In this document: piece after piece, positions 2,108-34,755 of the stretch
Layout: each line of letters starts with the position of its first letter
How positions within the stretch are numbered: position 1 is the stretch's first letter
Source of the DNA: Folioceros fuciformis
Taxonomy: Eukaryota
DNA: 41,668 nt
Reading direction: 5' to 3'
Assembly: GCA_049999805.1 (NCBI GenBank)
Contig: JBNGIO010006409.1
Location: forward strand, 1 to 41,668
Notes under the pieces: generated by a model
The model's database searches: none
What the model was told of the DNA's origin: nothing
The model's input: only the letters and a program-made list of their open reading frames with translations
Program-made: the position numbers and the translations under genes

Positions 2108-2112
2108 CTATC

Positions 2113-4668: not shown

Positions 4669-4672
4669 TCTT

Positions 4673-4684
4673 TGGTATAAGAGC
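4673..4684 (+). promoter_or_regulatory. Primer binding site, initiator Met tRNA type
   Basis: TGGTATAAGAGC, one mismatch from canonical TGGTATCAGAGC, 4 nt after the LTR. Confidence 0.85.
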
Positions 4685-9500: not shown

Positions 9501-9600
9501 GAACTTCCCTCATTGCCGACACCAGCTGAGTATGTGCTAGTAACCAGCCAACCCTCAATCACCCATTCTAGGACACATGCTCCCATTCCCTCTCCGGAGG

Positions 9601-12600
9601 TGTGGACTCCACATGTTGAACAGACCCCTGGGAAATGATAGGTTTTCTTTTTTTTAGGATTTGTGAGTGAGTCTTGTAGAAGAAAGGTTGGAAGGTTAGG
9701 TTAGAATAGTAGCTTAGAGTGAGGGTGAGTCGATAGGGTAGGTAGGTTGTGTGGTAGATAGGACACGGGCTTTGGTTCCTCGGGGTAAGGAATAGGAAAC
9801 CTGGACGTCGTGGAAAGAGGGTTGGGGGTCCTCTGGCTATTGCTGGTGGAAGTTGGGACAGAGATGGAGGTGTCAGGACGCTGCCCTAGTGCATCGGGTG
9901 GATAGGGATCACCAGAGCACAGGTGGCCAAATTAGCAGACCGGCGGGATCAGGGCGGTGGCCTAGATCTGGCCGGATTCAGAAGGCAGGAGCCAGGTTGC
10001 GGCCTCTGGGCAAGCGGTCAGCAGTAGGCTGCGAGGAGGGTGGGTTGGCATATCTAGCCGGCCAGGAGGCCAGATCGACGGACAGTCCTAGGTGGATCAG
10101 CGGGGCGGCTTGGCGACGGATCCGAACTGGCAGACTAGGTAGTCGGTGGGCTAGGCTGCTTGGATCCAGGCTGGCCGGCTGCAGCAGCAGACCAGCCAGA
10201 TGCAAGCAGGTAGCTGCTACAAGCGGCAGCCCCAACCAGCGGTTGAATCCAGCGGGCAGCCAGGTCGAGCAGGTTGGCTGCCTGGTTGGATCTGGAGGCT
10301 AGAGGTCGGCTAGTGGCCTCTGGCCAGTCGGCCAAGTTGTGGGCGAGGAAAGCGGGCTGGGTCGCGGTCAGGGGCAGGGCACTTCGGCGGGCTGTGGCAG
10401 TGCCAGAGCCATGCAGCCAAGCGGCTGGCGAGTCGACATCCAGGTGGGAGGGTGCCGAACCAGATTGGTAGCGGTAGCCGGATTCGGGATGTGATCAGGC
10501 TTGGCAGGCGGAGGCCGGGGTGGATCTAAGCCAGGCCGATGCCTAGAGGAGGGCCGGGCCAGCAGCGGCCCGGCTACGGAGAGCAGGGGTTGCAGAGGAG
10601 CGCTTGCAAGGGCTGGGCAAGCAGCACGGACACCCGGCTACGGGGAGGCAGCCTAGCCTGGCTGCAAGCAGGCAACCTGGTAGCTGGCGGGTGGGTGACC
10701 TAGCAGGCACGGCGCCGGGATCCAGGCAGCCAGGCCTGGCTGGCCAGGATCGCGAGGGGGCTAGCTAGGGGCTACAGCAAGCGGCCCCGTGAGCGGGCTG
10801 CTTGGCCAAATCCAAGAGGGCAGGCCGGCCTGGTAGGCGGCCTGGAGGATGGCTGGGCCAGCGGCGACCCGGCTGTGCGACCAGCGGGGCTGGCCGGCCT
10901 AATGCAGCTGCGGGTGGCCGGACTGGCCGTGACTGGAGGCACGCACTCCAGCAGGCAGCCTAGTAGCGGCTTGGCTGGTCAGTAGCAGGCTGGCAGGCGA
11001 TCCTGTAGGCAGATCCGACCAGGCAGCCGCCTAGTGCAGGCTGGCTGGCTGGAGGAGATCTTGGCCGGCAAGGCGAGGAGCAGGAGGTGCTGCCAAAGCA
11101 GGTACCCACTTGGCGGGTGGCTTAGCGGGATTTGGGGCCAGCCAGGCGGGCTGCAGGCAAGTAGCCGGGTAGGCCAAACGGGTGGCTGCCCTGCAAGGGT
11201 CGAAGACAGGGCACCCCAGGCCCGATGGGTGGCCTACGATGGAGACTAGACTAGCAGGACCGCCAGGTGACGGCAGCTAGCAGCAGTGGCTGAGGTGGCT
11301 AGCCAGCAGGCTCAGGTGGCCCCTGGCTGGATCAGGTTGCAGGCGGCCGGTAGCAGGCAGGGCTGGGGGGACGATGGATCCAGTAGCCAGGCCGACTAGC
11401 TAGACCATGGGTAGTCGGCGGGGTGGCTGGATCATGGCCAAAGCAGCCGGGTTGCAGGTAGGCGCGACCACCGGGCCAGCTGTAGAGGAGGCTGGGGCGG
11501 ACTGAGGCAGGAGCCGGGTTGGATCCAAGTAGGCGGCGGCGCTAGACCTGGACCAGGACGAGGCAGGGTGCAGGCGAATCTCGGCAGGTAGGAGGCAAGC
11601 TAGGCGGTCCAGTCGTCCAGGCGGATCAGAGGCGGGCGCTGGCCGGATTGCCAGGCAGCCAGGGGGCGGACCAGTAGCAGGCTAGCAGGCAGTCAGATGG
11701 TAGGTAGGTCTGGTGCTGGCTGGATCATGGTCGGTAGATCAGCTGGATGGCTGGATCAGATAGCTGGATGGCTTAGGAAGGCAGGCCGACTAGCTCCAAG
11801 ATCTCAAATAGGCTGGTGACCAGTCGAATTTGGGCGGGCAGGTTGGCTGATCGGACTGGCGGCCTACCAGGGCAAATCGGTCAGCCGGAGTACAGGCGGC
11901 CTGGTTGCTGAGTGCAAGTAGGCGCCCCAGCAGAGCGGACACAACCGGCAGGCAGCCGGCAAGTGTCCCTACAGGTAGACAGCCAGCAGGAGCTGGCGAG
12001 GCCAGTGGCTGAGGATTCAGGGGCACTAGCAGGGCTGGATCCCCGAAGCCAAGCAGCCGCCTGGCGGCTGGCTGGGAGAAATCGGGCCAGAGGGGAAGGC
12101 GGATTCTGGTAGGAGGCTGGCTTGCGGGCGCATGGCAGGCTGGCTGCGGCTGGTTGAGCTAGGGCCGCTTGGGGTGGCTGACTGGCCAGGTAATTGAAGG
12201 TGGACAGGGAGGCAGCGGTGGAAAAATGTGTGTGTTTCTCTAGTAGGCAGGAGGTGAGGAGAATGGTGGTGGATGATGTGAAGTCTGCAAGGGCTGCATT
12301 ATGCTAGGCCATGCTCAATGTGGTTCGCAGGGGAGACATTATCACCTTGCTGCCTGTGTACCCCTCTATCCCTGCCCGTCCTTCTTCCTCCGTTCACAGT
12401 GCAACATGCCTGCTTAAGGGCGAGGCCAAGGTTGTGGACAGGGCAACAATGCTGGGGACGGAGTGGAGTTGTGGAGACACATTTCAACCTCACTGCTAAT
12501 TAGTGAGAAAATTACAAAACCTGGCCGGGGGGAAGTCCAGGCTAGGGGGGGGAATCCTGACAGGTGGCTGGCCTAGCAACAGCTGGCTAGATCAGGGCTA

Positions 12601-14160
12601 GGCCTACCAAGCGGGGAGCAAGGGTGGCCCTCGTGAGACGGCTGGGGGCAGGATTCGGGAGTCGGGCAGCGACCTGCGGCCTGGCTACAGGATCCTAAGC
12701 AAGGAAGACAGCCGGATTTGGGTTGTGGTCTTGGGCGGATCCGGCTGACTGCAGATGCAAGGGAAGGTGCCTGAGCCCTGGCTGATGGTTAGCTGTCTGG
12801 ATACGGGTTGCAGGGCACTAGATGAGTAGATCTGCTGGGTCATGGGCCTTGGCCCACAGAATGGAGGGAAGGGTCAGAAGACGGTGGGGCTTTGAAGGGT
12901 TGCAGGATGATTCGAGGGAAAGGGAGGAGAGGAGAGTGTTGAGGGGCACTTCGGATTCTTGCTAGTTGTGAGAGGCTAACAATGTTGGATAGAGGGCAAC
13001 CAGCGGTGTCCAAGGGGGTAACGGGCAATTAGGTGCAGGTTAGAGTTAGGCTTGGGCTAAGTTGCAATCAGAACTAGGCCTGACTATATTTAGGTCTGTT
13101 TAGTTTTAGGTCAGGCTTAGATTAGGTCTAGGTCAGGCCTAGATTAGGTCTAGGTCAGGCCTAGNNNNNNNNNNTAGGTCAGGCCTAGATTAGGTCTAGG
13201 TCAGGCCTAGATTAGGTCTAGATCAGGCCTAGATTAGGTTAGATCTGGGTTAGACTTAGGCTAGGCCTAGGTTAGATTTGGGTTAGATTTAGGTCAGATC
13301 CAGGTTAGGTCATACCTAGGTCAGGTTTAGGTCAGAATTTGGTTAGGTCAGAGAGAGGAGGTAGGGTAATTGATTCAGGTTAACCATAGTAGACAGAGAT
13401 AGAGGGTAGGCAGATAAGAGGGGAGACCTGCCATTGAGAGGGGGCGGTCTATGGCGTGATATCCCCGGACTTTGTGGGTAGAACTCCTGGCTTAGGGCGC
13501 TGAGCCGGTTGAGGATGACCCAAAGTCTTGATTCCCCTTGCCACTAGGGGAACGTGGGGATCCCGGGGCTGTTAAGATCCGTGTGGCCGGATCCGCAAGG
13601 GCTACATGAATCGCAGGTTGGCTGAAGTGAAGGAACAGGACCGTGAGCTGGGGGGGGCTATCCAGTCCTAGATCCACACTATGCTTGAAGGCTGCAAGAA
13701 GTGAAGCCATTGTGTCCTAATTTCCAGGGGGGGAAAAGCTGAAGAAAAGGGAGGGAGAGTTGGAGTGAAATGCATAGAAGTGAAGAGTGAGCTGTTGAAG
13801 TGCAGGAGTGTGTGTTGAAGTGGGGGGTGGAGGACTGAAGTGAAGAGGAAGGGACTGAAGTGGGAAGTTTGCAGAGCTGAGGTGAAGGAGAAAGTGGCTG
13901 AAGTGGAAATCAAGAAGAGCTGAAGGACTGAAGAACAGGAGTGTGAGTTGGGCGAGCTGACTTAGGGGGTAGGCTAGGCTTCTAGCCTTTTTGTTGTCAG
14001 TGTATGGACAGACCTATAGACCGGCTGATAGGTAGGAGTGTGATAGGTAGTGTTCCTTGGCACTAGTTCACTCCCTTGGGAGCGAATCATAGGACTGCAA
14101 CGACAATAGGGGAATGTGTGGCCCCTTAGGTGGTTCTTGGGTGCAAGAAATCATTCCACA
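9601..14160. mobile_element. Long solo-LTR-like insert 1 (4,560 bp including a gap) inside the Gypsy integrase-chromodomain linker
   Basis: Termini TGTGGA...TCCACA, perfect TSD GGAGG (9596-9600 and 14161-14165), no recognisable retroelement coding domains. Confidence 0.88.
13100..13350. repeat. 22-bp tandem repeat TTAGGTCTAGGTCAGGCCTAGA with degenerate flanks
   Basis: Visible tandem copies on both sides of the gap at 13165-13174. Confidence 0.9.
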
Positions 14161-14165
14161 GGAGG

Positions 14166-14431
14166 TTAGCCACAGTCTTCCCTCTGAACCCCTCCCGACG
14201 GTATCACCAATTCCCCACCAACCGACCCGCATCCTCCAACGTCGAGACCGGCACCTCCGGCACCGACACATCCGGCACCGACACATCCGTGACTTCCTGG
14301 TTGCGTGGGAGGGCGAGCCCGATTCAGCGGCAACATGGGAACCTGAGGATTTCTATCTACAATTCCCCCGTCTGCGTGAGCAGATTCTAGATGGCCAGGA
14401 GGACCCGGCCCCAGCAAGTGGGGGAGAATGA
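14166..14431 (+). pseudogene. Integrase C-terminal chromodomain of the Gypsy element
   Basis: RDFLVAWEGEPDSAATWEP matches the chromodomain pattern YLVKW.G.....TWEP. PPT AAGTGGGGGAGAA (14416-14428) abuts the 3' LTR. Confidence 0.88.
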
Positions 14432-14766
14432 AACATGATGACGAGCAGGCCACTCAAGTCATCCGCCGAGGAACCGAAGCTACCACGAAACAGGTAGTAG
14501 GAACCCTACGAAACACTCATGGTTTTAGCGAATACCCAATTGATACGAAATAATTAAACAGATACTAATTAAATAGATAAATGCCAGTATATAGGATATC
14601 CGGATAACTAAAAATTGTTATACCAGTAGAATCCCAAGAAGTAGGGTAGTTAGGCGGGTAGGCACAGCCTTCTTGGAACTGCTCGCACACATGTATTTGT
14701 AGCGAATCTGAACATGAAGAGAACGTCCAATTTCCCAAAGCCGGAATCCAGAGCTGCCCCGTAACA
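14429..14766 (+). repeat. Gypsy 3' LTR
   Basis: TGAAACATGATGAC...CCCCGTAACA followed by TSD CAAGT. Confidence 0.95.
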
Positions 14767-16123
14767 CAAGTCGTTGTTTTGTAAGGATCCTGTAGCAAGG
14801 AGTTCCCTTTGCGGGGTTTCAATGATGTAGTGACCATCCCCGAAGCATACGTAACAGCCTGAGAAAATAGGCCTGTAAAATAGGCACTGGAGGAAGATCC
14901 TCCAGCATAAAAAGTGTTGGATAATTTGCGTCTTGCTTCTTCTGTTAGCATAGAGCTAATAACTTTGTTGACTGTCAGGGGAGTTACTCCTTGAAGGGAC
15001 TACACAACACTAACCCAGGACTCGGGCAGCGTGAAAAGGAGTAGGGCTGCAGAAAGATCTTTGGTAAGGGTGAATCCAGTGGCCTTGAATTTTGTTGACC
15101 AGCTACGGAAGTGCATAGTATGTTGGTCGACGAGATCTCCCTCTTGCGTGCGCAGGTTGAAGAAGTGTGTACAGTGTGCATAATATTATATCGTGCAATT
15201 GCTGCCAGGCAGCTACTGTAGTGTTTGTGTTTTCGATTTGTTGGACATTCCCATGACACATAGCCTGGATGATCATGTTGTGTGCTTGTTGATTGGCGTC
15301 TTCCCAGTCCTCCTTTTCTTTTGTTGTTCCGTTGGTTGGGTAGGCTATGGGAACAGGGGGGTTGCCTATGCCTTCTACGTAGCCCCATAATTTTCTCTCC
15401 TTTAGGATATTTTTATCCTAAATTTCCATGTTGGAAAGTTTTGCTACTAACCATCGAACTTGTCTTCTTTGGACAGGCTGGTGTGGGAGGACATGGTGTT
15501 GGTGGCGTTCTAAACGCTGAAGATAGTGTTTCTAATTATACTAGATACATCTAATTGCATGGTGAGGACAACTTTGTAAGTTCGTTGAGGGAATTTGATG
15601 TGGGAATGTGATTCGCCTAGACTGTTGATTTTCTGTATTATTGAGGTTTGTGTTTCTTGAATTTCCTTCGCAGATGGGAGCATGAAGAGGTTGTGTTGTC
15701 TACATAGAGAACTGAGGTGAGAGATTACTTTCTCCTTGACATCTGTGAGTGAGATGGGAGCGATGATGTCTAGACATGTGGTAAATTCCCTTTTCATTGT
15801 TGATGGAAGAGGTATTCTACCTGGATGTATGAGAAGTCATAATCATTATGTTCTAGGTGACCTCTGAGGAGTAGTTCTTTGCCAATTAAAAAGTAGGACA
15901 CCACAGGTCCTAAACCAGCCATAATGACAAAGGTTTTCCTGTGCCTCTTTGAGGTATCGAATCTCTCTGTTGGACCTTTGCCATTGAAGGTATTTGGCTT
16001 TTTTTTCCTGCCTTCTTTGCAAGGCGCCTTAGCCTCTGATCACCAGGCACTAGGTCGCAATTGGCGGGGCATTATGGTGTGGCTGGTATGGATGAGATCA
16101 ATGGACCAGAGGGAAGGGATCCT

Positions 16124-16135
16124 GCTCTGATACCA
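16124..16135 (-). promoter_or_regulatory. Copia A primer binding site (Met-i tRNA)
   Basis: GCTCTGATACCA is the reverse complement of TGGTATCAGAGC. Confidence 0.9.
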
Positions 16136-16329
16136 TATAATTATCAGGATTAGATTTGCATTGACACGTGATCGTTAAGTACATAGGTGAAATGCTACGA
16201 GCATACTCGTAACCGTTCACTTAAGTTCGACTTTTGGTATCTAGTGTGTAGACCGAAACGTGCCCTAACCTAGGCAGTAGATATGCATTAATAATAGGCC
16301 CACCTTTGATACCCTACAGTCAGTGTTTG

Positions 16330-16540
16330 GGCAACCAGCATGTGCACCTCCATGCTCTTCTGAAAGGCACCAGTGCTGTGCACCAGCCTTTTTCAAGCAC
16401 AGCAAAGTAACATGGTCAGCGAAAATGAGGCCCTCCAGCTCTAGTCGTCCACACACAACTAGCGCTTCCTGTTCGAGCAAGCCCGTGCTTGGCATACCTA
16501 GTCTCATAGCATTCCAGATGGAATATTCTACTCGCACCTC
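16330..16540 (-). pseudogene. PLS-class pentatricopeptide repeat gene fragment
   Basis: Across frameshifts it reads SIWNAM..G/YAKHG..QEAL...RLELEG..DHVTLLCLK.A../STGAFQKSMEVHMLV, which resembles consecutive P and L motifs. Confidence 0.65.
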
Positions 16541-17330
16541 AAATGGACACCGAGATCAATGTACTCGTCGCTTCACAAATAAATCCTTCTTACAGACAGA
16601 CACTTTCGAAACTTTGCCTCTAATTACAAAATAGGTGTAGATGTGACAATAATGAGCATCTTGGCATTCATGTATGTATTATTTGTTGTAGGTTTCAAAA
16701 CATTCACTCATGACCATGGTGGTGTAGGGTTATTAAAGACCAATGTGTTTAGACTAATGTGTTTAGTCTAAGATTAGTGTCTAGTTAAGTATTCATTAGT
16801 TTAGATTAGCTTAAGCTAATCTGTAGGAAGCTTCTTGCGCAGCTTCTTGTGCGCTTCTTGTGAAGCTTCCTAGGGAGCTCTTCTAGAGGGTATAAATACC
16901 CCCTTGAGCTCCCTTGCATATTAAGACTCATTGTGAGAGTGTGACCTCTCTTTCTCCTCTCCTCCTTGCCTCCTCCTCTCCTCCTTCACCATGTAGCTTC
17001 TGGAGCTATCCTTCAAGTGGAACAATGCACATGACATTGGAGCACCATGGACCATTGGATCACTAACAGTGTGGTTTAACTTCTTCCAAACATGGCATAA
17101 GGAAACCTTGTGGCCAAACTCCTTACACACCTAGCAAAAGGGAACGTGGTGGCTGAACTTCGTACACACTTAACAAAAGGTAACATACGTTATCTACCTT
17201 TTTGGCTAAGGGCAGTTGGAGGCTTAGTGCCTTGGCATGTTGCTATTAAAACAACATCCTACTGGGATTAACATCAATTATTAGGACGAAGCAAACCTCC
17301 ACTGGCCTAGTAAGGTTGGTCGTAAACTAT

Positions 17331-17660
17331 GGAATTAATAAATTGGGACTATTAAAAGTCTCTCTCTGTGTACAATCGGCCGAAGGTGTTACAATTATTG
17401 TTATTATTAATTTTTAATGTTTGATTTGCTCTTTGATTTTAGATTGTAGAAGTGGTAAGACCAAAGTCTATTGCGGTAGCCATTAACTAAGTCTTGGAAT
17501 TAATAAATTGGGACTATTTGAAGTCTCTCTCTATGTACAGTCAGCCGAAGTTGTTACAATTATTGTTATTATTAATTTTTAATGTTTGATTTGCTCTTTG
17601 ATTTTAGATTGTAGAAGTGGTAAGGCCAAAGTCTATTGCGGTAGCCATTAACCAAGTCTT
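17331..17660. repeat. Two-copy tandem duplication of ~165 bp
   Basis: GGAATTAATAAATTGGGACTATT... begins at 17331 and 17496, and the copies are near identical. Confidence 0.92.
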
Positions 17661-18144
17661 AAAGCTTGTGAAAGAAGCTAAACTGCTTATAGGTCTAAAA
17701 GGGAAGGATCATTATCGAAGAAAACTCTAGAGAGGACTTTGACTAGGGTGTGCATGACTAGAGGAGTTATGTCAGATTGACAACTAAGGCAACAACAAGC
17801 ATAAGGAGGACACTTATTTTTTCTCCTTCTTTTGCTTTTTCCTCCTCCCACCAGCCCCTCCCTCTTCTTGTCTGTACACAGGTTGGCTGGTTCTTCATAG
17901 AAGAAATCACTCTAGCCTAACATTTTAGACTTTTCTCCATGCTCAAGCATTGTAACTCATGCACCCATCCATCCACTTGCCCGGTTGGCTGGTTCTACAT
18001 AAACGAAGTCACTCCAACATGACGTTTTAGATTTTTCTCCATGGTCAAGCATTATGTCCCATGTTTTAGACTTTTCTCCATGGTCAAGCATAGTGTCTCA
18101 TGTTTTGGACTTTTAATAGGGTTAATAAAGTCCAATGTGCTTAT

Positions 18145-18680
18145 ACTAATGTGTTTAGTGTAAGATTAGTATCTACTTAAGTACCATTAGTTTAGATTAG
18201 CTTAAGCTAATCAGTTGGAAGCTGTACCATTAGTTTAGATTAGCTTAAGCTAATCAGTTGGAAGCTTCTTGCGCAGCTTACGATGCGCTTATTACGCAGC
18301 TTTTCATGCGCTTCTTGCACAGTTTCCCATGCGCTTCTTGCGCAGTTTCCCATGCACTTCTTGCGCAGTTTCCCATGCGCTTCTTGCGTAGTTTCCCATG
18401 CGCTTCTTGCGCAGCTTCTTAGGTCCTAAGATTGGAAGCTTCCTATGACTCTAGTGGTAATTAGACCCTTGCTCGATGCCAGGACCTAAGACTCTAGTGG
18501 TAATGAAGACTCTTTCTCCTTAGTAGCTTGGAGGACCTAGGACTCTAGTGGTAGTGAAACTCTTAGTCCTAGTAGTAGTGAAGACTCTTTCTCCTTAGTA
18601 GCTTGGAGGACCTAGTGAAACTCTTTTTCCTTACTAACTTGGAGGACCTAGTGAAACTCTTTTTCCTTACTAACTTGGAC
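18145..18680. repeat. Minisatellite cluster: ~23-bp TTTCCCATGCGCTTCTTGCGCAG units, then GACCTAG/ACTCT units; 18145-18280 also repeats 16753-16845
   Basis: Directly visible tandem units. Confidence 0.85.
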
Positions 18681-19059
18681 ACTGATGTTTTACCTACTAT
18701 GAGTAGCCATCAGGGTCAAGGGTAGCCCTAGTGTCTAATCAAGATTTATCAAGATTTATAAATGGACCTAACCTTCTTGATGCATCAAAGATGTGCACGA
18801 GGTTCTTGAGCATAGGAAACAACTTGGCTATGAGGTTCTTGAGCTTAGGAAACACCATAGCATGAGGTGTTTTTTCCTTCTGAAGAGTTGAGGATCTTTC
18901 AAAATAAAATTTTAAGTACAGAGGGCCCGTAGATCCTATCAGAACCCCACGACGGAATAGACCGTGACGTGGACCCCATTTAGCGACCACGGAGGGTGCA
19001 TGCGTGCCCCGTATCACTCCAGAATCCCTAGGCTTCAAGTGTTAAGTCGGCAAAATTAC

Positions 19060-20855
19060 CTGGGCATGATTTTCTGCATACACAAGAGCTCTGCCTCCGG
19101 ACTGGGAATCGATTAAAGTCTCTACAATCTGAAATCGCCGTACCACATGCCGTTCGTTAGTTCACAAAACGTGAACCACACTCACGAAGAATTCCATGGA
19201 GTACAGGACTCTCAAATCTCACCTGACTCATACTCCATTCACTGTCTGGAACATTTTCAATGCGATACGACCACATCTCAGAGGGTGAGACGCTGGCAAA
19301 GTAGTCAAAGCCCAACCCGCCTTTACTGATGGGTTCAGTCAATCCTGGATACTGTGAGGCCTGTGGGAAGTCGCAATCGACTCAGCCAAGAGTGCTGGTG
19401 CTGTGCACACAAGCAATCCAGAATTTGTCAATTAAAAGAAGAGAGGCAGGATTGTGCATACATCCCCTGCAATTGTGACAATGTTCGAGTTGAGCTTGTG
19501 CAGCATCTCATTAGCCAGAACCACATACAGCAATGCATCTCTGTCCACGTATTGATTGCAGTAGCTGCACAACCAGAGAAATGTGAGAAAGAGCGATGAA
19601 GCAGTCTATGTAATTCGACCAACATGGAGCTCGTGCGAGCAATTTCCTGAATGACAGCAGCCTTACTCATTCAAGCCATTTGTGAACTCTGCAAATCCAT
19701 TGTGGTTGTAAAACATGGACTGCAGCGAACGGAAGTGGAAACCATCTAATTGACACTCTTCCACCCACCTGCCATGAGAAAGAAACGTGTGACTTCCAAG
19801 CTACCTTGCTCTAGATGCGAACTGCCTGAGAGAGCAAATTCAAACAAAGCATTCAGAAAGATCAGTCACACTAGAGATCATCGAGGCGGACTAANNNNNN
19901 NNNNCAATAACCACTTCAACTTTGATAAGAGGTCGCGAAGCACTTCGTATTCACCATAGTTGAATATGCGGGTGCCTGGATGTTTGTGACGCCCTCGCCG
20001 TCCTGCAATGCAAGGGTGAACTCAGCTGCTACAGTGAACGGGATGGTGAACGGACGAAAAAACAACCTAAGTTTTCTACACCAATCCTTGCAAGGCAGTG
20101 CACACTAACCATCATGGAAGTAACACTCATTAGCACTATCGAATGAAGAAAGGCCAACCATCTCGTCTGCAGCCGCATGTGAGTGGACCATAGTGTCCAT
20201 GATGAAAAACAGGCCCATTCTTGTTTCATCATGAACTCAAAACATGAGAAACGAAACGCTGACTTGATGTAAACTGGGCTTCAGTAGCAGGCTTGCAAGG
20301 AATGCCTAACGAACCATGGGCACTGTCAACCAGATGTTTGAAATCTTCTGGGGTTCCAAAGCGACTACTTACCGCGAACATATTCGTAACCTGCCCAGTT
20401 GGCAAATTCTACACATTAAATGGGCGCAGAATAATCTCAACGAACCTTCAAACATGAGGCACATGAAGAGCACAACAGGGTTGTACCTTATAGCCAGCAC
20501 TTGCATAGTCTACATGCTCCTGAATACCCATGAGCTGGACAGCGTTGTACCTAGACTTCTTGACAAGAGGAAGAGCCCAATTTGTCATAAAACATGGTTT
20601 CTCAGACTGCAAACTACATACTACAGACATTCTGAGCAGGGCACAAAACAAAGGCAACGAACCACCAGACTCAATCCATACTTGCCTTCGCAGTAAACTG
20701 TTGGAACATTGTTACACCAAGTTCTTCTCCACTTATTCCGACATGACATTCATAAATCCGTAATGGCTGTGGTCTCTTGGGACTCTTGTGCTGCCATTGG
20801 TGCCGCTGTTGAGGTGGATTCCACATACAGGCGCTAAATGTATTACTCCCAACAT
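19060..20855 (-). pseudogene. SBE3: Starch branching enzyme 3 clade (GH13) gene, nine central exons, inverted
   Basis: Spliced exons translate to [62 protein letters not shown]-like; YCNQYVDRDALLYVVLANEMLH; GGLGFDYFASVSPSEMWSY..ENVPDSEWSMSQ; IVETL...YAENHAQ. These resemble Arabidopsis BE1/EMB2729 as remembered. Both gene ends are missing. Confidence 0.9.
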
Positions 20856-21292
20856 CTGAATAGATTGGTTAAGATCAACTTAGCATCATCGTCCATCCCA
20901 CAGAACACATTCACATCCTTTGTCTCAGCAGGTTCAACCTGCCGGATATACAGGTCATTACATCTGCTGCTACAGGCATTAGAAGAACTTTCCTTACAGC
21001 ACACACCAATGCCATCAACATTAGAAGAAACCATCAGTCACAGAGTACAGGGTGTGGTTGATATGCTCACGTGGTTGCAGCGCATTCGCTCAACGTCGAG
21101 AAAGCTGTTGAGAAGGCTACCACGGCTAAAACGAGTATGCACCGCTTGCCGAAGTTGGAAACAAATATAGGAGAACAAATACAGCAGACATTCTCTTTGT
21201 CCATAGTTCACAAGTTGTGAACATTCTTTGTCCATAGTTCACAGTTCACATCCTAATAGTAAAAAAGGTTGCATTGAAATTTATGAGTCATC

Positions 21293-22339
21293 CTAATCTA
21301 TCAGTAAGGGATAGCCTAGAGAGTCAGCTATGCAAACTATTGCCGAAGCTTGAGAAATTGTTAGTGGAAACCTGGATATCTTCCATGATCCATACTGCCT
21401 TTCAAGTTGCGAAAGGACACGAAATGTATCGTCGTCAACATGGGCAGAAAGAATTTTGTACATATCCACTATGGCTCTAACTTGATCATCAATGGATTGC
21501 CAGCCTCCAGAGATCTTGATACACTGAAACAAATTCACATCTGAGGATAGAAAATACCGCCACCAATCAGCTCTGGTTCTTCTACCCTTGGTGTCTCCAG
21601 TTCTGATTCCTCTATCCATGGTGCCTCCATACTTCACCTTCAAGTGTTCTTCAAAGAACTTGAAAATGCCTGTCAAGTTGTTGGTGCCTTTTGCCGTTAA
21701 GAGATCGAATTCGAGATCCCGAATTCTTCGTTCACAGTGAGAAATAGCCTGATCCTTAGACCTCGAAGCTTCTATGGCCATCTGCGCGGTTACCTCCCTA
21801 GCCCTCGAAACTTCTATGGCCTGCTGCACGGCTAGGGAGGCCTCCTGAAAGGCTTGCTCCCTAGCCTGCTGCACGGCTTGCTCACTAGCCCTCGAAGCTT
21901 CTATGGCCTGCTGCACGGCTTGCTCCCTAGCCTCCTGAAAGGCTTGCTCCCTAGCCTGCTCACTAGCCCTCGAAGCTTCTATGGCCTGCTGCACGGCTTG
22001 CTCCCTAGCCCTCGAAGCTTCTATGGCCTGCTGCAAGGATTGCTCCCTTGCCCTCGAAGCTTCTATGGCCTGCTGCAAGGATTGCTCCCTAGCCCTCGAG
22101 ACCTGGATGGTTTCTTCAAGCATCTTGACTGAATCAATGAGCATCTGTTGCCTCTCGGGGTCCTCCTCTGTTCTCAACAGGTTCAACAGAGGGTCCATAT
22201 AGGAAGCTCTAACACTGAAAGCCTTGACATGCCTATCCCGAGCATAATCTCTTCTTGGCATACTCAAGCCCATGAGTGATCTAGAAGCAGAGCCGCTAAT
22301 CGGCACCAGCAAAGCCGCCATAGACAGAGACGCCTGCAT
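21293..22339 (-). CDS. Intronless 348-aa protein: putative organellar transit peptide, repeat coiled coil, unknown C-terminal domain
   Basis: Uninterrupted ATG-to-TAG ORF. N-terminus is Ser/Ala/Arg-rich and ends in VRA|S. The non-repetitive ~140-aa C-terminus is also open. Confidence 0.78.
   Translation of the reverse strand: MQASLSMAALLVPISGSASRSLMGLSMPRRDYARDRHVKAFSVRASYMDPLLNLLRTEEDPERQQMLIDSVKMLEETIQVSRAREQSLQQAIEASRAREQSLQQAIEASRAREQAVQQAIEASRASEQAREQAFQEAREQAVQQAIEASRASEQAVQQAREQAFQEASLAVQQAIEVSRAREVTAQMAIEASRSKDQAISHCERRIRDLEFDLLTAKGTNNLTGIFKFFEEHLKVKYGGTMDRGIRTGDTKGRRTRADWWRYFLSSDVNLFQCIKISGGWQSIDDQVRAIVDMYKILSAHVDDDTFRVLSQLERQYGSWKISRFPLTISQASAIVCIADSLGYPLLID
21760..22105 (-). repeat. 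In-frame 42-bp (14-aa) tandem repeat AIEASRAREQ(S/A)(L/V)QQ with in-frame variants
   Basis: Recurrent GCCCTCGAAGCTTCTATGGCCTGCTGCA on the plus strand. Confidence 0.93.
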
Positions 22340-22424
22340 ACCTCAACCGGCAAAGGCTTTCCGATTCTCCCACTACCTCTCACCCCTCACCCATTTAATG
22401 TCCAGAATTTTGCCAACTGAGCAG

Positions 22425-23675
22425 GTTACGAATATGTTCGCTGTAAGTAGTCGCTTTGGAACCCTAGAAGATTTCAAACATCTGGTTGACAGTGCCTATG
22501 GTTAGTTAGGCATTCCTTGAGCGCCTGCTACTGAAGCCCAGTTTACATCAATTCAGCGTTTCGTTTCTCATGTTTTGAGTTCATGATGAAACAGGAATGG
22601 GCCTGTTTGTCATCATGGACATAGTCCACTCACATGCGGCGGCTGCAGACGAGATGGTTGGCCTTCCTTCATTCGATTGTGCTAATGATTGTTACTTCCA
22701 TGATGGTTAGTGTGCACTGCCTTGCAAGGATTGGTGCAGAATGCTGAGATTGTTTTTTCGTCCGTTCACCATCCCGTTCACTGTAGCAGCTGAGTTTACC
22801 CTTGCATTGCAGGACGGCGAGGGCGTCCCAAACATACAGGCAACCGCATATTCAATTATGGTGAATACGAAGTGCTTCGCTACCTCTTATCAAAGCTGAA
22901 GTGGTGAGTGGATTNNNNNNNNNNCGATGATCTCTAGTGTGACTGATCTTTCTGAATGCTGTGTTTGAATTGCTCTCTCAGGCAGTTCGCATCTAGAGCA
23001 AGGTAGCTTGGAAGTCACACTTTTCTTTCTCATGGTAGGTGGGTGGAAGAGTATCAAATAGATGGTTTCCACTTCCATTCGCTGCAGTCCATGTTTTACA
23101 CCCACAATGGATTTGCAGAGTTCACAAATAGCTTGAATGAGTAAGGCTGCTGTCATTCAGGAAATTGCTCGCAGGAGCTCCATTTTGGTCGAATTACATA
23201 GACTGCTTCCTCACTCTTTCTCACATTTCTCTGGTTGTGCAGCTACTGCAATCAACGTGGACAGAGATGCATTGCTGTATGTGATTCTGGCTAATGAGAT
23301 GCTGCACAAGCTCAACTCGAACATTGTCACAATTGCAGGGGATGTATGCACAATCCTGCCTCTCTTCTCTTAATTGACAAATTCTGGATTGCTTGTGTGC
23401 ACAGCACCAGCACTCTTGACTGAGTCGATTGCTACTTCCCACAGGCCTCACAGTATCCAGGATTGGCTGAACCCATCAGTAAAGGCGGGTTGGGCTTGGA
23501 CTACTTTGCCAGCGTCTCACCCTCTAAGATGTGGTCGTATCTCATTGGAAATGTTCCAGACAGTGAATGGAGTATGAGTCAGGTGAGATTTGAGAGACCT
23601 GTACTGGAATTCTTCGTGCGTGTGGTTCACGTTTTGTGAACTAACGAACGGCATGTGGTACGGCGATTTCAGATT
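22425..23675 (+). pseudogene. SBE3: Second partial SBE3 copy (six central exons), forming the right arm of the inverted repeat
   Basis: AG/GT-bounded exons: [25 protein letters not shown] (22425-22500); MDIVHSHAAAADEMVG; IFNYGEYEVLRYLLSKLKW; WVEEYQIDGFHFHSLQSMFYTHNGF (His at the DGFRFD nucleophile position, typical of the SBE3 clade); DRDALLYVILANEMLH with a 2-bp deletion relative to the left copy; GGLGLDYF. Confidence 0.9.
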
Positions 23676-24160
23676 TCAAGAAGTTGTTCAATTTGGACGG
23701 CCCATTCCCGACAGACAGGGATGCATTGGCTGGGACCTTTGAAAATATCTTTCGTAAAACGGCAAGGATCGATTGTCCAGGTTTGTGATACGACCTTCGT
23801 AGTTCATATGGTCTGAACGAAGTTGGCACTCACCTGGTATTTGGTTGTGCCCAGTGGGATGAACGAGGTTCCTGGTTGTAATCTGGCTTTTGGTTGTGCT
23901 GTGCAGCTACTCTACCAGGACCACCTTGGTCACTGAGGCATTCACCACCGAATGAGCTTGCCAAACTGACAGAGTTCCAAGAAGAGTTGGTGCAGTTAGC
24001 TTCACAGTTGAATGGTGATCACTTGTTGAACAGCTATCCCAACATTGGAAAACTCCTGAACGTGGGGCAAGCGAATGCATACACTCGAGGCCATGGCTAG
24101 ATTCCTGGAGGAGGGTAGGAGGGCACTGCGGAATGGTGGGAATAGCACAATGTTGTAAGG
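23676..24160 (+). pseudogene. NPC1: 3' fragment (last two exons) of a non-specific phospholipase C gene, NPC1-like
   Basis: [25 protein letters not shown]...DCP, intron 23781-23906, then LTEFQEELVQLASQLNGDHLLNSYPNIGKLLNVGQANAY. Matches the remembered NPC C-terminus (KKLFNL..FLTKRDAWAGTFE; LSEFQ.EL.QLASQLNGD). Confidence 0.82.
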
Positions 24161-24298
24161 CTGATGCCATTTGCTTTACCAGTAACCCTCAGATATTTGG
24201 GTCTACCCCTTACGTCGGTGCGTCATGGTAGGATTTGAAGGAACTGACTTGATGCAGTATCCAAACCAAACCGTGGAGTTGATGAGTTAACTGGTCAC

Positions 24299-25836
24299 AT
24301 GGAAAAATGGACGGGATGCCTCCAGCCAGGCCAACTGCTAGACATGCGGTCTCCCCGAGACACCATGTTGAAGCTCATTGCTACCCCACCAAGGGACGTC
24401 GCAGTTTCAAAGTGCTTTGCAGTGGGGAAGACAGGGATTGCATCTGAGCAAAGAGTCCCGGCTCCCAGTAACTTGGGCCCGGATGCAGTTGGGTTTTTTA
24501 AGGAGAAGAATCTCACCTCGAAAGCCTTCCCGCAGTATTTGCGTGAAAGGTACTACTCTCTCAAGCTCTGTATGGCGTATTGTTTTAGTAAACATGAAAC
24601 GAAAGTAGCTGGAGGTGAAAACTGTGGTTGGTTCAGGACTTGGAATTTGAAGCAGACATAGCATAGGAAAAGGGGAAAATTTTCTCCTGAGCTGCTGCAA
24701 TTGTTGTCCAGGTACAAAGCTTTGAAGGACTTGAGAATGCTGATAGCTGAGCAGGATGACAATCTTCTTGCCTTCGCATCAGCGTACGTGACGCTTTGTG
24801 TACCTCCTTTGATGGTCCACAGTGGTGAGGGTTGGGAAGGGGGGATTGACCCGCTAGTATGCATCGCAGATATGAGGCTTCGCCTTTCATGCTGTTAAGC
24901 TTATTGAATGGGCTCCAGGTAAAATTTGTTCTCTTCGTTTTCACTTCTGGTGAACAAGTGCATGCATCCATTTTGTAGTAGCTGCATCCTATATCTTGGT
25001 GTAGAATCAGTCCTGCAGGTGCCTTGAAGTCTCCATTGCCAAACAGTGGCTATTCAAACCATTCCATGTCTTGTGCTTCTGACGCATGCTTTGTCAGTAC
25101 CCTGCCTGACTCAGCCATCATGGTTGCAGCTTCTCGTTTTTGTTCTATTGTTGGGGATTTCAACAACTGGGAACCCAGTAAAGAGTATTCAGGGGAGGGA
25201 TATCTTCGACATGATGATTATGGCTGTTGGAGACTTGTAATTGAAGACAAGCTTCGTGAAGGAGAAAAGCCAGATCTTATAGTAAACGAGTACAGTTACG
25301 ATTAGGATTATGACTTAGGTGATGAGAACCCTGACTGGGATGCAATTTTTGACGAGGCTGACAAGCAATATTGGGAGCCTGGTGAAGATGAGTATATGGG
25401 TGATCCCTTGGTTAAGTGGCTGGAACTACATAGGAAGATTTTTGGAGACAATCCCAATCCCATTTATCGGGAAGAGTCCACAGACACAGAGGAGGAGGAT
25501 GGTTCTGACGACTTTCCTGACTACATCCCCAGTGCTCGAGCAAGATATGAAGCATGGAGAGCAAGCCAGCCTGTCATTGAGGGACAGTTGCCTCCGATTG
25601 ATGTAGTAGATGATGGGAGAAATGTTGAACCGACCTGTGTAGATGACCCTATTTACCGGGCCCGAGCGGAGCGAAAAACTCCTCCAGGTTATTGGAAATA
25701 CCTACGAAGTGGCCGTAAAGCATGGGAGAAGAAGTATATACCTACTGTCGCTCATAAGAGTAAACTACGGCTGTTTCTTCAAACGCCTGGAGGGCCTCTG
25801 GAGCGAATCCCTGCTTGGGCCACGTATGTCTTACAA
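24299..25836 (+). pseudogene. SBE3: SBE3 5' exons (N-terminal region), with an in-frame stop
   Basis: GPDAVGFF...KAFPQYLRER / YKALKDL / EWAP / FCSIVGDFNNW...HDDYGCW..IEDKLREGEKPD / YWEPGEDEY / GRKAWEKKYIP...GPLERIPAWATYV. TAG at 25303-25305. The start position is approximate. Confidence 0.88.
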
Positions 25837-26338
25837 GTGAATAGCTTCTCGAGGGACTTGAGTGCATGGGGTCGTAGAAACCGTAGCAAGCCATTCCCGT
25901 CCATATCTTGAAGACGGGAATGGGATGGCATATTTCCACTGACCTCCCAGCTTTCACCCAGGCTGGAGATGGCCACGCGCAGGTTGTGTAGAAAGATCCC
26001 TTTCACAGCCCACAAGGCAGGTTCTGCCATGAGGTTAGTCGAAGGCCATCATGACGAGTACTTTCACCCAACCCATAAAGCGATGCAGTCTTTGCAACTG
26101 ATGTTGGGTACTGATCCTTGGACATAGTGATGCGAAACCAAGAGATCGGAGGTGCAAGAATAACTCAAACAAGAGCCTGCTGTCTTCTATCCTGCCACCA
26201 TGGCAAATGTCCCCATCACAAGCTCAATGCATATCCTTCGAAACCTCGGCGTGCAGTCTGACCTTCACCTCCTCCACCCGAGTGTGTGTGAAGAGCTGTC
26301 AGTATGTCAATGGCGGGCTTCTCCAGGAATCTGAAACG

Positions 26339-29300
26339 TGTTGGAGAAAACTAGGTTTAAGCACAGCCTGATACCCGTTACCGAATTAGGACAGTTTCAT
26401 AAACTCACTAGTTAAACAGCTTAGCGGTTCGAACAGTTAAGTAGGTTACTCAAGTTACTAATTGATCAATCGTCGTTATAACTAAATACACTTTGTATTT
26501 AAATCGTATCATTAATGCTCGAATCATCAATTCCAAGGGATTCTTGTCCCGCTACATGGTATCAGAGCCCCAGGCTCGTCCCCTCATGGCTTCGCCGTTG
26601 CTTCCCGTCACTGGCGCTGCACACTTCACAAGGATGGGTCAGCAACAATTGAAGAATCCAGCGGACCAGAGATCCTAATCAGGAAAACATGGCAAGGCGA
26701 TGCACCTCCGTGACTTTCACTTCAATACACCGTGCTCCCACTCCTGAAGGGAGATCTTTCATCAACATAGTAGAGAAGCAAATCCACGACGAGCGACTCC
26801 GCCGCCGGTGGACTACGCCAACTACCAGCACACCTATCAGCATTCCAGCCACGGCCGCCCCGATCAAGCCCATCTCTCACTCACACGGATGCACGTACAC
26901 TGCTTCCTCCCAAGCCAGCGTACCTGCCACACCTAAGTACTTGAGAATTCAATTGGACTACATAGAGTCACAACTCGGCCCTGCATATCGCAATCAATCA
27001 AATTCCCTTCTACATACAAATGTAGATCACGCACTCACTCCTCACCTTTTTTGCTAGTCCTAATTCGACGCCCCGCTGCCTTTTATGCCCAAATTTGATC
27101 CGCTCTCCCTTCATACCACAAAGCTCCCTACAAAGAAACTTGCAATTAAATCAGCCATGGCCTCTTATGTCCCTAATCCCACTTCTACGGTGATTAACAC
27201 CACCAAAGTAGAATTTAGAGACTGTGATCGCTTCAACGGAAGCAATTACGATATCTGGCAAATGAGAATCACAGCCCTGTTAGAAGAACATGATCTAATG
27301 TCAATCACATACGGCACTTTGCCACGGCCCTCGCTCACCTCTACCACACCAGCTACCCTTGACCAGATAGCTACATGGGACAAGAAAGACAAGAGGGCTC
27401 GCAACATCTTGATATCTGCGATTGACAAAACAATGCTACAACACACCCAAGGTCAGACGACCTCACATGATGTATGGAAAGCTTTTAATGACATGTTCCA
27501 GGCACAGAGTTCAATGTCTCTAATCAATGCCACAAGTCAATTCTATTCACTGAGGATGAAGGACAGTGAGAGTGTCGAGCAACACGTAAACATCTTGCAG
27601 CCCCTGCGAGCGAAGCTCTCTAGCAGCGGCACCGTCATCACCAAACTTCAAGCAGTAGGCGCAAACGCACCACCAGCCTACACCTTTTCAGACGTTATTT
27701 CAGCATTTCTCGAGAAAGAATCCAGCAGAATCGGCACCTCAAGCAATAATGTTGGGGTAAGCCACGCCCTCTTCACTTCCAGAGGTCGGGGAAATAGGCG
27801 TGGTAAAGGACGAGGAGGTTTCCCCAAGCGAAGAGGCCCACCTTCTCCAAGCTTCTCGGGCTTCCCAAGTCGACAATTTTCACAAAACAGATCATTTGAC
27901 AGAAGATCAGCCAAACGAGCATGTAACTGGTGCAAAAATCTTGGTCACTACAAAAGTGAATGCCGAAAGAAGCAGGCAGGCAAGCCACGCAGAGAAGCTC
28001 CCAGAAACGAGTCTCACCTTACCACAACTACCAAGTCGTCGTCAGCCAGTTCCATCTTAGCAGTCTGCCTCACCCTTACCAGAACAGACACATGTCGTTG
28101 GTTCTTAGACTCCGGAGCCACCACACACATATGTAGCTGTCAAGACATGTTTACCTCCTACCACCCGGTCCTCTCCGACCAACACGTCCTCTTAGGAGAT
28201 GATAGTGCACTACCCATTCAAGGTTCAGGAGAAGTCCAACTGCGTCTTTCTACTGGAGAGCTCCTCACCATCAACAAAGTCCTGCACGTACTTGCAATGA
28301 CCAAGAACTTGCTAGCAGTCCGTAAGTTAGCCACAAAACATGACCTCACCATCACGTTCCAAGGAAACCACTGCACCATCTGTCACAGCAAAGACCCTGA
28401 GAAAATAGCCCTGGCTCACGGACTTCCCTTCAATGATCTTTACCTCTTGAACATCCAATCTACATCACTCTTGGTAGATAGCAGTCCACCAACATCCTCA
28501 AACAAGTCCTTGTTACTGCACTGCCGTGCAAGCCATATGAACCCTAGATACCTTAACATGCTTGCAAACCCCACCATGTATAAGGATCTTGTCAAGCTCA
28601 AAGTTCACAAGGACTTCTTCTGCAAGATATGTCAGTATACCAAGTTAAACCAATCACCTTTCAAAGACCCTTCTCCTACCCATGCCAGACTAGTGCTTAA
28701 GACAATCCACTCCGATATATGTGGACCCATGAGCACAGACTCCTTTGGAGGCCACAGCTATTTCATTACGTTCCTGGATGAATGGAGCAGATATTGCCAT
28801 GTCTACTTCTTGAAGCGAAAGGACGAGGCCCTTTCATGTTTCCAAGACTTTCTTCTCACTGCTGAGTGGCAAACAGGATTTCAAGTAACCACCCTGCGAA
28901 CAGAAAATAGGGGTGAGTACATCAGCAATGCCTTCCAAAGATTCTGCCGCTCTAAGGGCATTCAACAAAAGAACACGGTACCTTATACTCCCTCATAGAA
29001 CCCTTTCGCTGAACGACTGAATCGTTCCTTGTTGGAAATCTTGAGGTCCCTCCTCAAACTCGCAGGCTTAACAAAAGCATACTAGGAAGAAGCTGTGTTC
29101 AATTCCACTTACCTGAAAAACAGGCTTCCAACTAAGGAACTCCCCTGCACTACTCCATTCGAGAGGTGGAGTGGCCACAAACCTAGGGTATCCCACCTCC
29201 ATATTTTCGGTAGGAACCTTTGCCCATATTGCTGCAAAAACCCGAAGGAAGTGGGATGATACAGGTCGAAAGATGTTGTTCATAGGATACTTGGACCAAG

Positions 29301-30204
29301 TCAAAGACTACCGGCTCTTTGATCCCCACTCTTGAGAGGTAATCCATTCCCGCAATGTTCATTTCCACAAAACCCATCTCCTCAACACACTCCTCCAGTC
29401 CTTCCTCACTTCCACTCCCTTGCTTGCACCTAGCATTTTTGGCCATTCTACCACTGAATCCCCCCTTGAGTTTGAAGGGGCCACAGACTACGATAACATC
29501 ACCTCACTGCAAACTCAAAAGGTGATCCAACAAGAAGTACTTTAGCAACCTGCACCACCAACCTAACAACCACTAGCCCAATAGCCTATACAGCAGCAAC
29601 CAGACCTCTCTCACTCCACATCATCTCCAAACTCCCAAATCCCAGAGGTTACTGTCCCGGAGATAATACCCCAAGTGTACCATCCCGAACCCACTTTACC
29701 TGCACCTCCAGAAGCAATCAGAAGATCCACCAGAAACAAACCTACACGAAGTGAACGGAAAGAGCCACCATACACTCATGGTGATACCCTCACATGTCCC
29801 ATGGAGCGCCAGGCATCCTCCATCTCTCAACCTCACACTGACTAGTTGGAAGATGTTGCACACCAGGCACTATCGGCCATTGAAATGTAGGGAGTACCCC
29901 TATCCATAGACGAGGCACTTGCTTCACCAGAATGGACAGTTGCAGTACAATCAGAGTACGACTCCCTAATGAGCAACAAAGCGTGGAAGTTGGTGGACTT
30001 ACCGAAAGGAAGAAAACCTATCTCCTGCAAGTGGACATTCAGGCACAAACTCAATCCAGACGGAACAGTAGCAAGACATAAGGCCAGACTTGTTGTAAGA
30101 GGCTTCACTCAGATCCCTGGCTTCGACTACGAGGAAACCAGACTTTTTAGTCCAATAGTGAAGTCGACCTCCATTAGAATTCTTCTTGCCTTCGTAGCAC
30201 ACCA
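26339..30204 (+). mobile_element. Ty1/Copia element B, 5' part, truncated within RT
   Basis: 218-bp LTR TGTTGG...GCTACA (26339-26556), perfect PBS TGGTATCAGAGCC (26557-26569), gag-PR-IN ORF, and RT start ([28 protein letters not shown]) cut at 30204. Confidence 0.93.
27085..28998 (+). CDS. Copia B gag-protease-integrase polyprotein, prematurely terminated
   Basis: FNGSNYDIW, CNWCKNLGHYKSEC knuckle, WFLDSGATTH protease, IHSDICGP, YFITFLDEWSR. TAG falls inside the integrase core. Confidence 0.92.
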   Translation: MPKFDPLSLHTTKLPTKKLAIKSAMASYVPNPTSTVINTTKVEFRDCDRFNGSNYDIWQMRITALLEEHDLMSITYGTLPRPSLTSTTPATLDQIATWDKKDKRARNILISAIDKTMLQHTQGQTTSHDVWKAFNDMFQAQSSMSLINATSQFYSLRMKDSESVEQHVNILQPLRAKLSSSGTVITKLQAVGANAPPAYTFSDVISAFLEKESSRIGTSSNNVGVSHALFTSRGRGNRRGKGRGGFPKRRGPPSPSFSGFPSRQFSQNRSFDRRSAKRACNWCKNLGHYKSECRKKQAGKPRREAPRNESHLTTTTKSSSASSILAVCLTLTRTDTCRWFLDSGATTHICSCQDMFTSYHPVLSDQHVLLGDDSALPIQGSGEVQLRLSTGELLTINKVLHVLAMTKNLLAVRKLATKHDLTITFQGNHCTICHSKDPEKIALAHGLPFNDLYLLNIQSTSLLVDSSPPTSSNKSLLLHCRASHMNPRYLNMLANPTMYKDLVKLKVHKDFFCKICQYTKLNQSPFKDPSPTHARLVLKTIHSDICGPMSTDSFGGHSYFITFLDEWSRYCHVYFLKRKDEALSCFQDFLLTAEWQTGFQVTTLRTENRGEYISNAFQRFCRSKGIQQKNTVPYTPS

Positions 30205-34159: not shown

Positions 34160-34755
34160 TCTCTCATACCACAGTCGTGGGCTTGCTTATGGCCATAAAT
34201 TGAGTGATTAAGTGTACACACCTTTTGTGGACAAATCTTATCTTCGTAATCCTCGGGTTGATCCATGTAGATCTCTTCCTTGAGATGACCATAGAGAAAG
34301 GTTGTACACACATCAAGCTAATAGATCTCCAAGTTTAGTTCAGCACATAAAGCAAGGAGCATTCTAACTGATGCAGCCTTGACGACGGGTGAGTAGACCT
34401 TATCACCTTGATAATCCACTCCCTCCTTTTGACTATATCCCTTAGCTAATAATCTTGACTTGTAGCGAATTCGTGGCTCTACTTCCTGGAACTTAGTTTT
34501 AAGAACCCATTTGCACTTGACAGTGGTCCTACCCTTAGGCAGACTAACGAAAGTCTAAGTGTTGTTTTTAAGTAATGAGTTGTACTCATCATCAATAGCT
34601 AGCTTCCATTTGGCTCCCTCAGGTCCCGAGTATGCATCTTGTAAGGTTAAAGGATCTCCCTCTGTAGCAGAAACACTTAAGGCATAGAGAGCATCCAAAG
34701 AATTAACATAGGTTAAACTAGCTTGATTAAACTCAATATCAAATGGTTGTTCCTT

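Follow-up and report, generated by a model that had tools for sequence, protein, structure and literature searches.

Does a fold-back of branching-enzyme exons around an open reading frame (ORF) act as a silencing locus, or is it the residue of a duplicated gene that is falling apart? The question is raised by positions 19,060 to 23,675 of a 41,668-nt stretch of Folioceros fuciformis DNA (contig JBNGIO010006409.1 of assembly GCA_049999805.1; the whole stretch is hereafter called the window). An initial annotation of this region described ~1.3 kb inverted arms of intron-containing SBE3 catalytic-domain sequence, flanking a ~2 kb spacer with two more SBE3 exons and a 348-amino-acid ORF (ORF348), and proposed that a minus-strand transcript starting in the right arm and reading through the ORF could silence SBE3 in trans. 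Our analysis indicated that the locus is probably an additional copy of the SBE3 gene, now called MKIP1, which has been rearranged around a lineage-restricted coiled-coil gene and is transcribed but decays neutrally.

Self-BLASTN of the window returned a single long inverted match, between 19126-20424 and 23675-22390, with 93.3% identity over 1304 columns (E = 0), and a repeat search broke the same inverted repeat into six blocks of 93-99% identity each. The left arm (19126..20424, minus strand) contains exons F to A and is part of a longer left SBE3/MKIP1 copy, and the right arm (22390..23675, plus strand) is a duplicate of exons A to F. Both arms share this six-exon structure (A-F), with GT/AG borders conserved between them. 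The spacer (20425-22389, 1965 bp) holds two further SBE3 exons and the intact ORF348, with 50 nt separating its ATG from the point at 22390 where the right arm begins. The arms, the content of the spacer, and the distance of about 50 bp between the ATG and the right arm were therefore as first described, and the original start of the region at 19060 is explained by an extra exon of the left copy (19057-19125) outside the arm.

To this geometry we added evidence from public sequencing data. A run search returned eight runs, five with part of the stretch; none held half of its words, and none was recorded as RNA. Logan contigs of runs X1, X3, X4, and X5 were mapped to 17500-25500 with a 95% identity limit. 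Such contigs carry no strand, ends, or levels and cannot show absence, the runs differ from the window by ~3%, and contig depths were not taken as copy number. The window contains five N10 gaps, two of which lie at mirror positions in the arms, in the same intron between exons C and D (19895..19904 in the left arm and 22915..22924 in the right arm). The right gap was crossed by one X5 contig (22862-22987), and the left gap was skipped by a spliced X3 contig joining 19824 to 19911. The junction at 22390 between the ORF flank and the right arm was bridged by DNA contigs of X1 (22201-22495) and X4 (22171-22427); X4 carries a second organism label, differing from that of X1, and the junction is present under both. 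Because contigs bridge the 22390 junction and both N gaps, a scaffolding artefact behind the fold-back is unlikely, with the orientation of the central piece between the gaps not rigorously fixed. The fold-back is a real inverted segmental duplication.

The gene family was recognized from single translated exons, which matched solved branching enzymes colinearly at residues 144-189 (exon E1; E = 1e-7), 190-223, and 308-339 of human GBE1 (PDB ID: 5clt). Exons also matched rice BEI and PDB entries 4bzy, 3amk, and 7ml5. A word-based search with one exon found 25 proteins at E <= 0.01 among 27 candidates, the top two being fragments annotated as "hypothetical proteins" of the fern Adiantum nelumboides (P0007 and P0009); the same kind of search with exon F gave no match at E <= 0.001 among 13 candidates. 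tblastn with P0007-P0014, comprising fern proteins and full-length enzymes, tiled both copies. Moreover, residues 38-272 of P0007, the domain content of which is PF02922 only in the precomputed list, matched 25123-25833 on the plus strand (43% identity, E = 2e-51), exposing a third piece of the gene that encodes the start of the carbohydrate-binding module (CBM) 48 and a long Glu/Asp-rich insertion. Pfam search over 68 short frames of the region gave sub-threshold chance matches only; single exons do not reach the length that the alpha-amylase model requires.

The sequence motifs of the active site pointed to a particular class. At the nucleophile position, aligned with DGFRFD of 5clt, the right copy reads DGFHFH (His) and the left copy DGFHFR (Arg). 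Exon G of the left copy reads ENHAQ, which we take, by eye, to stand at the canonical HDQ motif; in this alignment the second Asp of the triad is absent, with Ala instead of Asn. The charged MKIP1-type region after the CBM is encoded in 25130-25836, in the part aligned to P0007 residues 38-272. Since replacement of the nucleophile Asp and a charged insertion after the CBM are both class III hallmarks, these motifs assign the gene to the class III branching enzymes, i.e., SBE3, synonymous with BE1/EMB2729 and MKIP1 (AT3G20440). Together, the colinear matches and the tblastn tiling supported the earlier naming of the arms as intron-containing SBE3 catalytic-domain sequence. According to a preprint on these proteins (10.1101/2025.01.08.628318), the class III enzymes AtBE1/EMB2729 were renamed MKIP1, carry a charged insertion of ~150 amino acids after the CBM, and have two catalytic-triad Asp residues replaced (H558 and N682 in Arabidopsis). 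The preprint also describes MKIP1 as without branching activity, binding MatK, needed for the splicing of plastid group IIA introns, and essential in Arabidopsis, and class III proteins as present in every photoautotrophic land plant examined. SBE3 is thus a MatK cofactor and not a starch enzyme, so a trans effect of the locus would hit plastid splicing and not starch.

We delineated the exons by conserved GT/AG sites and RNA joints. The left copy is read on the minus strand and begins in the spacer with E1 (about 20683-20868), matching 5clt residues 144-189, and E2 (about 20487-20588), matching residues 190-223, both also recovered by tblastn with P0007 and P0009. It continues in the arm, where the arm alignment and GT/AG borders defined exons A (20315-20390), B (20110-20220, with acceptor CAA instead of CAG), C (19912-20002), D (19667-19768), E (19462-19564), and F (19223-19360). 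Exon G (19057..19125), placed by translation and alignment, lies outside the arm and contains the region IV motif ..YAENHAQ. The right copy, on the plus strand, consists of exons A-F only and begins 35 nt inside the intron preceding exon A. Its exons A (22425-22500), B (22595-22705), C (22813-22903), D (23039-23140), E (23243-23343, with a 2-nt deletion), and F (23445-23582) were placed by the arm alignment, with further support from the X3 joints 22704-22812 for B and C and 23582-23681 for F. Homology between the arms stops 3 nt past the acceptor of the intron after exon F, from where the left copy continues into exon G and the right copy into an unrelated exon, 23676-23780.

This unrelated exon, to which right-arm exon F is joined by splicing, opens the 5' half of the SBE3/MKIP1 gene (23676..25836, plus strand), as delimited by tblastn with P0007, translations, and the joints and loose ends of X3 contigs. 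It is followed on the plus strand by an exon at 23906-about 24130, an exon ending at 24549, one at 24712-24918, and a large exon at 25130-25836 with CBM48 and the charged insertion. The gene is therefore split in three: the minus-strand exons E1-G (20868-19057), the plus-strand duplicate of A-F, and the plus-strand 5' half. The large exon ends in ..YVLQ|GT, and in the fern protein the residues of E1 come next. Here E1 lies 5 kb off on the opposite strand, which places an inversion breakpoint in the intron after the large 5' exon. X1 and X3 contigs depart from the window at 24291 and 24354 with loose ends of 113-255 nt, indicating that the public runs have a 5'-half region structured differently from that of the window.

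Translation and tblastn found no exon beyond G in the window, from which the 3' part of the gene is absent, and self-BLASTN detected neither SBE3 nor ORF348 a second time outside the block, for which tblastx against the remaining window sequence gave only short chance high-scoring segment pairs. Adjacent to the left copy, on the side where its 3' end is truncated, 17330-18680 holds satellite-like tandem arrays with 165-bp (x2), 102-bp (x2), 43-bp (x2), 23-bp (x about 8), and 36-75-bp units; length variants of this region were seen in the DNA runs (joints 17967-18055, 18445-18532, and 18782-18823).

Comparison of the arms addressed whether selection has kept either copy. Exons differ at 25 of 616 positions (4.06%, plus 8 gap columns) and introns at 29 of 653 (4.44%, plus 6 gap columns). 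Nonsynonymous changes account for 22 of the 25 exon substitutions, against roughly 20 expected from the share of sites, and the ratio of nonsynonymous (pN, 0.045) to synonymous (pS, 0.024) differences per site was 1.89, an imprecise value with just 3 synonymous changes. Equal divergence of exons and introns and the predominance of nonsynonymous exon changes suggest that both arms have drifted neutrally since the duplication. Each piece of the gene also carries a lesion: the 2-nt deletion in right exon E causes a frameshift, left exon B has lost its acceptor (CAA for CAG), and a TAG at 25303-25305 interrupts the reading frame of the large 5' exon. Given the neutral drift of the arms, one copy or more would be a transcribed pseudogene, and the locus in its entirety is probably a cluster of such pseudogenes.

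Transcription was assessed with the contigs of X3. Intron-sized joints occurred in X3 alone and in none of the three DNA runs (12 of the 15 joints listed, out of 16, were X3-only), and we therefore treated X3 as RNA. To the right of the ORF, all four listed joints (22704-22812, 23582-23681, 24547-24710, and 24915-25127) were GT..AG on the plus strand. The first two lie inside or at the right arm, which is accordingly read on the plus strand, away from the ORF. In the joint 23582-23681, five letters lying between the joined parts equal window positions 23676-23680, so that exon F is spliced to the acceptor at 23675. This chimeric joint between exon F and the 5' half can only arise from the rearranged arrangement.

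To the left of the ORF, four of the eight listed joints (19564-19667, 19564-19769, 19824-19911, and 20388-20485) were CT..AC, corresponding to minus-strand introns, and the other four had non-canonical ends as printed. One of the latter four, 20896-21070, with a skip of 173 nt, becomes CT..AC after a one-base shift together with the X1 variant 20899 C>T. The X3 contig concerned (427 nt, 14 mismatches) joins 21433-21071, from the interior of ORF348 past its stop, to 20897-20834. A single minus-strand RNA of that allele can thus contain ORF348 together with the left SBE3 copy, the exons of which then form part of the 3' untranslated region (UTR); the ORF348 stop lies 223 nt before the 3'-UTR intron. 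Among the contigs of X1, X3, X4, and X5, no transcript spanning both arms was seen, and the contigs over 17500-25500 showed no minus-strand transcript through the right arm. X3 has no cover at 22325-22387, where other runs carry four variants, so the 95% limit may hide contigs and the interval is uninformative on the transcript start. Between 19564 and 19824, X3 also shows alternative joints that skip exon D (19564-19769) or use an in-intron acceptor (19824-19911), the latter adding a stop-containing exon; in these joints, the SBE3 copy or its paralog is spliced aberrantly or with a poison exon.

We then considered ORF348 (21293..22339, minus strand, 348 codons), which is the sole long ORF of the region and is covered by X3. 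It comprises a disordered, Ser/Ala-rich N-terminus, a coiled coil encoded by 42-nt (14-amino-acid) repeats at 21745-22122, and a C-terminal domain of ~150 amino acids that is predicted to be folded and belongs to no named family. On the basis of its Ser/Ala-rich, acid-poor start, a plastid transit peptide is plausible. ORF348 matched no Pfam family and no protein at E <= 0.001 in word-based search. HMMER over 1.84 billion representatives returned six proteins at E <= 0.001, four of which match the coiled coil only. The remaining two, P0005 (197 amino acids, E = 9.7e-6) and P0006 (239 amino acids, E = 5.1e-4), are homologs of the C-terminal domain, with pairwise BLASTP E values against ORF348 of 2e-13 and 8e-13, respectively. 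Both are unnamed singletons and, like ORF348, have a coiled coil ahead of the domain. The description of ORF348 as an orphan was thus nearly right, short of these two remote homologs, and ORF348 marks a small unnamed family, with a coiled coil and a conserved domain of ~150 amino acids, almost without relatives in public data.

Structure prediction by AlphaFold2 from the single sequence was poor in the C-terminal domain. With a three-row alignment, the predicted local distance difference test score (pLDDT) was 77.6, and the model showed a disordered segment (residues 1-41), a long helix (61-191), and a mixed helical domain (195-347). Foldseek found 0 matches at E <= 0.001 in the PDB, which does not imply novelty of the C-terminal fold; the VIA wide fold search returned coiled-coil rows only (residues 35-193, Z <= 7.7), and residues 195-348 gave no usable Atlas match. 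Among the ORF348 variants listed for X1, X3, and X4, nine of 11 were nonsynonymous, which hints that constraint is weak. At 22339, X1 and X4 have A for T, changing the ATG to TTG, and the next in-frame ATG is codon 7.

From the anatomy, gene family, neutral divergence, and splicing orientation established here, a course of events can be proposed. Partial or tandem duplication of the gene would have come first and inversion after it, and by this inversion the 5' half was separated from E1, its canonical neighbor. The acceptor of the last intron was retained in the right copy, so that any sequence lying behind it is spliced in as an exon, and ORF348 sits between the copies, with an mRNA that can extend into the left one. 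The resulting transcripts would be by-products without further function. The locus would then document a route of gene decay, from partial duplication through inversion at an intron to a kept acceptor that yields chimeric spliced RNAs under neutral drift, and provides a well-documented example of a duplicated essential gene falling apart.

Several observations weigh against this interpretation. Most spliced contigs have 23-30 nt on their shorter side and could derive from a near-identical paralog, and the depth of RNA contigs over the region is high. In addition to the imprecision of the pN/pS ratio noted above, the spliced left exons A-F still form an open frame of 207 codons. An "AT" insert of X5 behind 23254 restores the frame of the right copy, X3 and X4 have "AA" behind 24086, and X1 and X3 carry 16 extra letters at 24877-24882; small indels, some of the lesions included, may be assembly errors or allele differences. 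Finally, if no intact MKIP1 exists elsewhere in the genome, part of the locus must function or the assembly must be scrambled.

The principal alternative is a hairpin locus, in which a minus-strand transcript from the right arm or beyond would run through ORF348 into the left copy and be processed by DCL proteins into small interfering RNAs (siRNAs) silencing SBE3/MKIP1 in trans. The arms could pair, as is true of any such repeat: they share 25 perfect runs of at least 21 nt (915 nt in total, longest 84 nt), and the two N-free blocks would form duplexes with energies of -1447 and -918 kcal/mol. Part of the required transcript is in evidence, since the X3 contig with the 173-nt skip, a canonical minus-strand intron given 20899 C>T, connects the 3' end of ORF348 to the left copy. 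If the 5' UTR of ORF348 exceeded 50 nt, it would reach into the right arm in antisense, making a short stem with exon A conceivable, and precedents are known in PAI1-PAI4, Mu killer, and AtFOLT2. The right-arm part of the proposed read-through, however, was not supported by the joints of this arm, both listed ones being plus-strand GT..AG. The copies stand head-to-head, so that their own transcription gives no hairpin, whereas PAI1-PAI4 are tail-to-tail and Mu killer needs read-through from a flanking gene; each copy is read outward in its own sense, and two sense RNAs are not mutually complementary. Spliced RNA of the left copy would also lack the introns, about half of the arm, and strong trans-silencing of a gene essential in Arabidopsis would be costly. 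We thus regard a hairpin locus as unlikely, and a real one would join a known kind, exemplified by the three precedents, rather than form the undescribed system initially envisaged. An extension of this idea, in which an ORF348 mRNA running from the right arm into the left copy would couple a plastid-directed coiled-coil protein to an anti-MKIP1 hairpin in one amplified unit, and carriers would depend on or interfere with MKIP1 dosage as in an AtFOLT-type selfish or incompatibility element against plastid intron splicing, is highly improbable.

It is quite unlikely that the rearrangement has created new functional chimeric genes, either ORF348 with SBE3 exons or the right copy with exons of the 5' half, encoding a neofunctional protein or a regulatory RNA. 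Spliced chimeric joints do occur in the RNA (23582 to 23676 and 21071 to 20897), the left exons A-F are open for 207 codons, pN/pS exceeds 1, and the ORF/right-arm junction is found in runs of two organism labels (X1 and X4). However, the position of the ORF348 stop 223 nt upstream of the 3'-UTR intron means that SBE3 exons would not be translated with ORF348, and the frame running on from exon F stops after ~44 more codons; the equal divergence of exons and introns and the listed ORF348 variants, nine of 11 nonsynonymous and one removing the ATG, argue in the same direction. Capture and shuffling of gene fragments by a DNA transposon of the Pack-MULE, Helitron, or CACTA type could account for fragments that retain introns and yield chimeric spliced transcripts in a transposon-rich window with copia and gypsy pol domains on both sides. 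Nevertheless, comparison of 15500-19125 with 23676-27100 revealed no terminal inverted repeats (best 12-13 nt, E 0.15-0.61), no transposase domain was present among the scanned ORFs, and all fragments come from one gene and nearly tile it, which local rearrangement fits better, making capture very unlikely. Mis-joining at the N gaps is the least probable of these explanations. It would be suggested by the mirror positions of the two N10 gaps, the many small indels between the window and the public runs, and window ends that form an exact 3067-bp repeat, but X1 and X4 DNA contigs bridge the ORF/right-arm junction, an X5 contig spans the right gap, and the splice between exon F and the 5' half is present in RNA. 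An inverted repeat would persist even if the piece between the gaps were turned around, and the 4-7% difference between the arms marks them as two loci instead of a single one represented twice.

Outside the block, retrotransposons of the copia and gypsy types make up most of the window. A gypsy/chromovirus-type long terminal repeat (LTR) retrotransposon occupies 4331-14766, bounded by direct repeats at 4331-4668 and 14429-14766 (338 bp, 92.6%), and encodes reverse transcriptase (6978-8054), RNase H (7942-8745), integrase SH3 (9180-9452), and chromodomain (14093-14428) regions. The divergence of its LTRs is similar to that of the SBE3 arms. Inside this element, 10001-14000 is GC-rich, with a GC content of 0.65-0.68 at 10-12 kb and a GC skew of up to 0.41 at 13-14 kb. 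Copia-type elements lie at 27064-30331 (plus strand), 33053-36600 (minus strand), and 2162-4355 (minus strand), the first with a 644-codon open frame at 27064-28995 containing gag, Pol_BBD, and integrase domains. The window ends, 1-3067 and 38602-41668, are 100% identical direct repeats with a period of 38,601 bp and hold a copia reverse transcriptase fragment at 2162-2416; they could reflect tandem repetition of a unit, a contig that is circular or overlaps itself, or an artefact of assembly. An Rfam scan of the whole window gave 0 matches.

Compared with known systems, the locus resembles MKIP1/BE1/EMB2729/SBE3 in its intron-rich GH13 exons, the replacement of the nucleophile Asp by His in the right copy, and the charged insertion after the CBM48 start. 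It differs in that the gene is broken up into three rearranged segments, lacks its 3' part within the window, and is damaged by a premature stop, a frameshift, and the loss of an acceptor. In this rearranged copy, Gly (IAGD) replaces the acid/base Glu, and the second Asp position seems to be taken by Ala where AtMKIP1 has Asn. Arabidopsis PAI1-PAI4 is a natural inverted duplication that triggers methylation of unlinked copies in Ws-type accessions (PMC3431836). The present locus likewise appears to be a natural inverted duplication of a housekeeping gene, whereas PAI1-PAI4 are tail-to-tail whole genes and the copies here are partial and head-to-head, with a 2-kb spacer containing another gene. 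For maize Mu killer, read-through from a flanking gene has been proposed as the origin of a hairpin RNA (PMC3440606; PMC3431836). It shares with our locus a partial inverted duplication, although Mu killer has perfect arms and a transposon target, and here the arms are 93% alike and the target would be an essential host gene. In the case of AtFOLT2, rearranged truncated copies are thought to give siRNAs that silence AtFOLT1, causing incompatibility (PMC3431836). That case already covers the incompatibility scenario, and its likeness to the SBE3/MKIP1 locus would consist in the rearranged, truncated copies.

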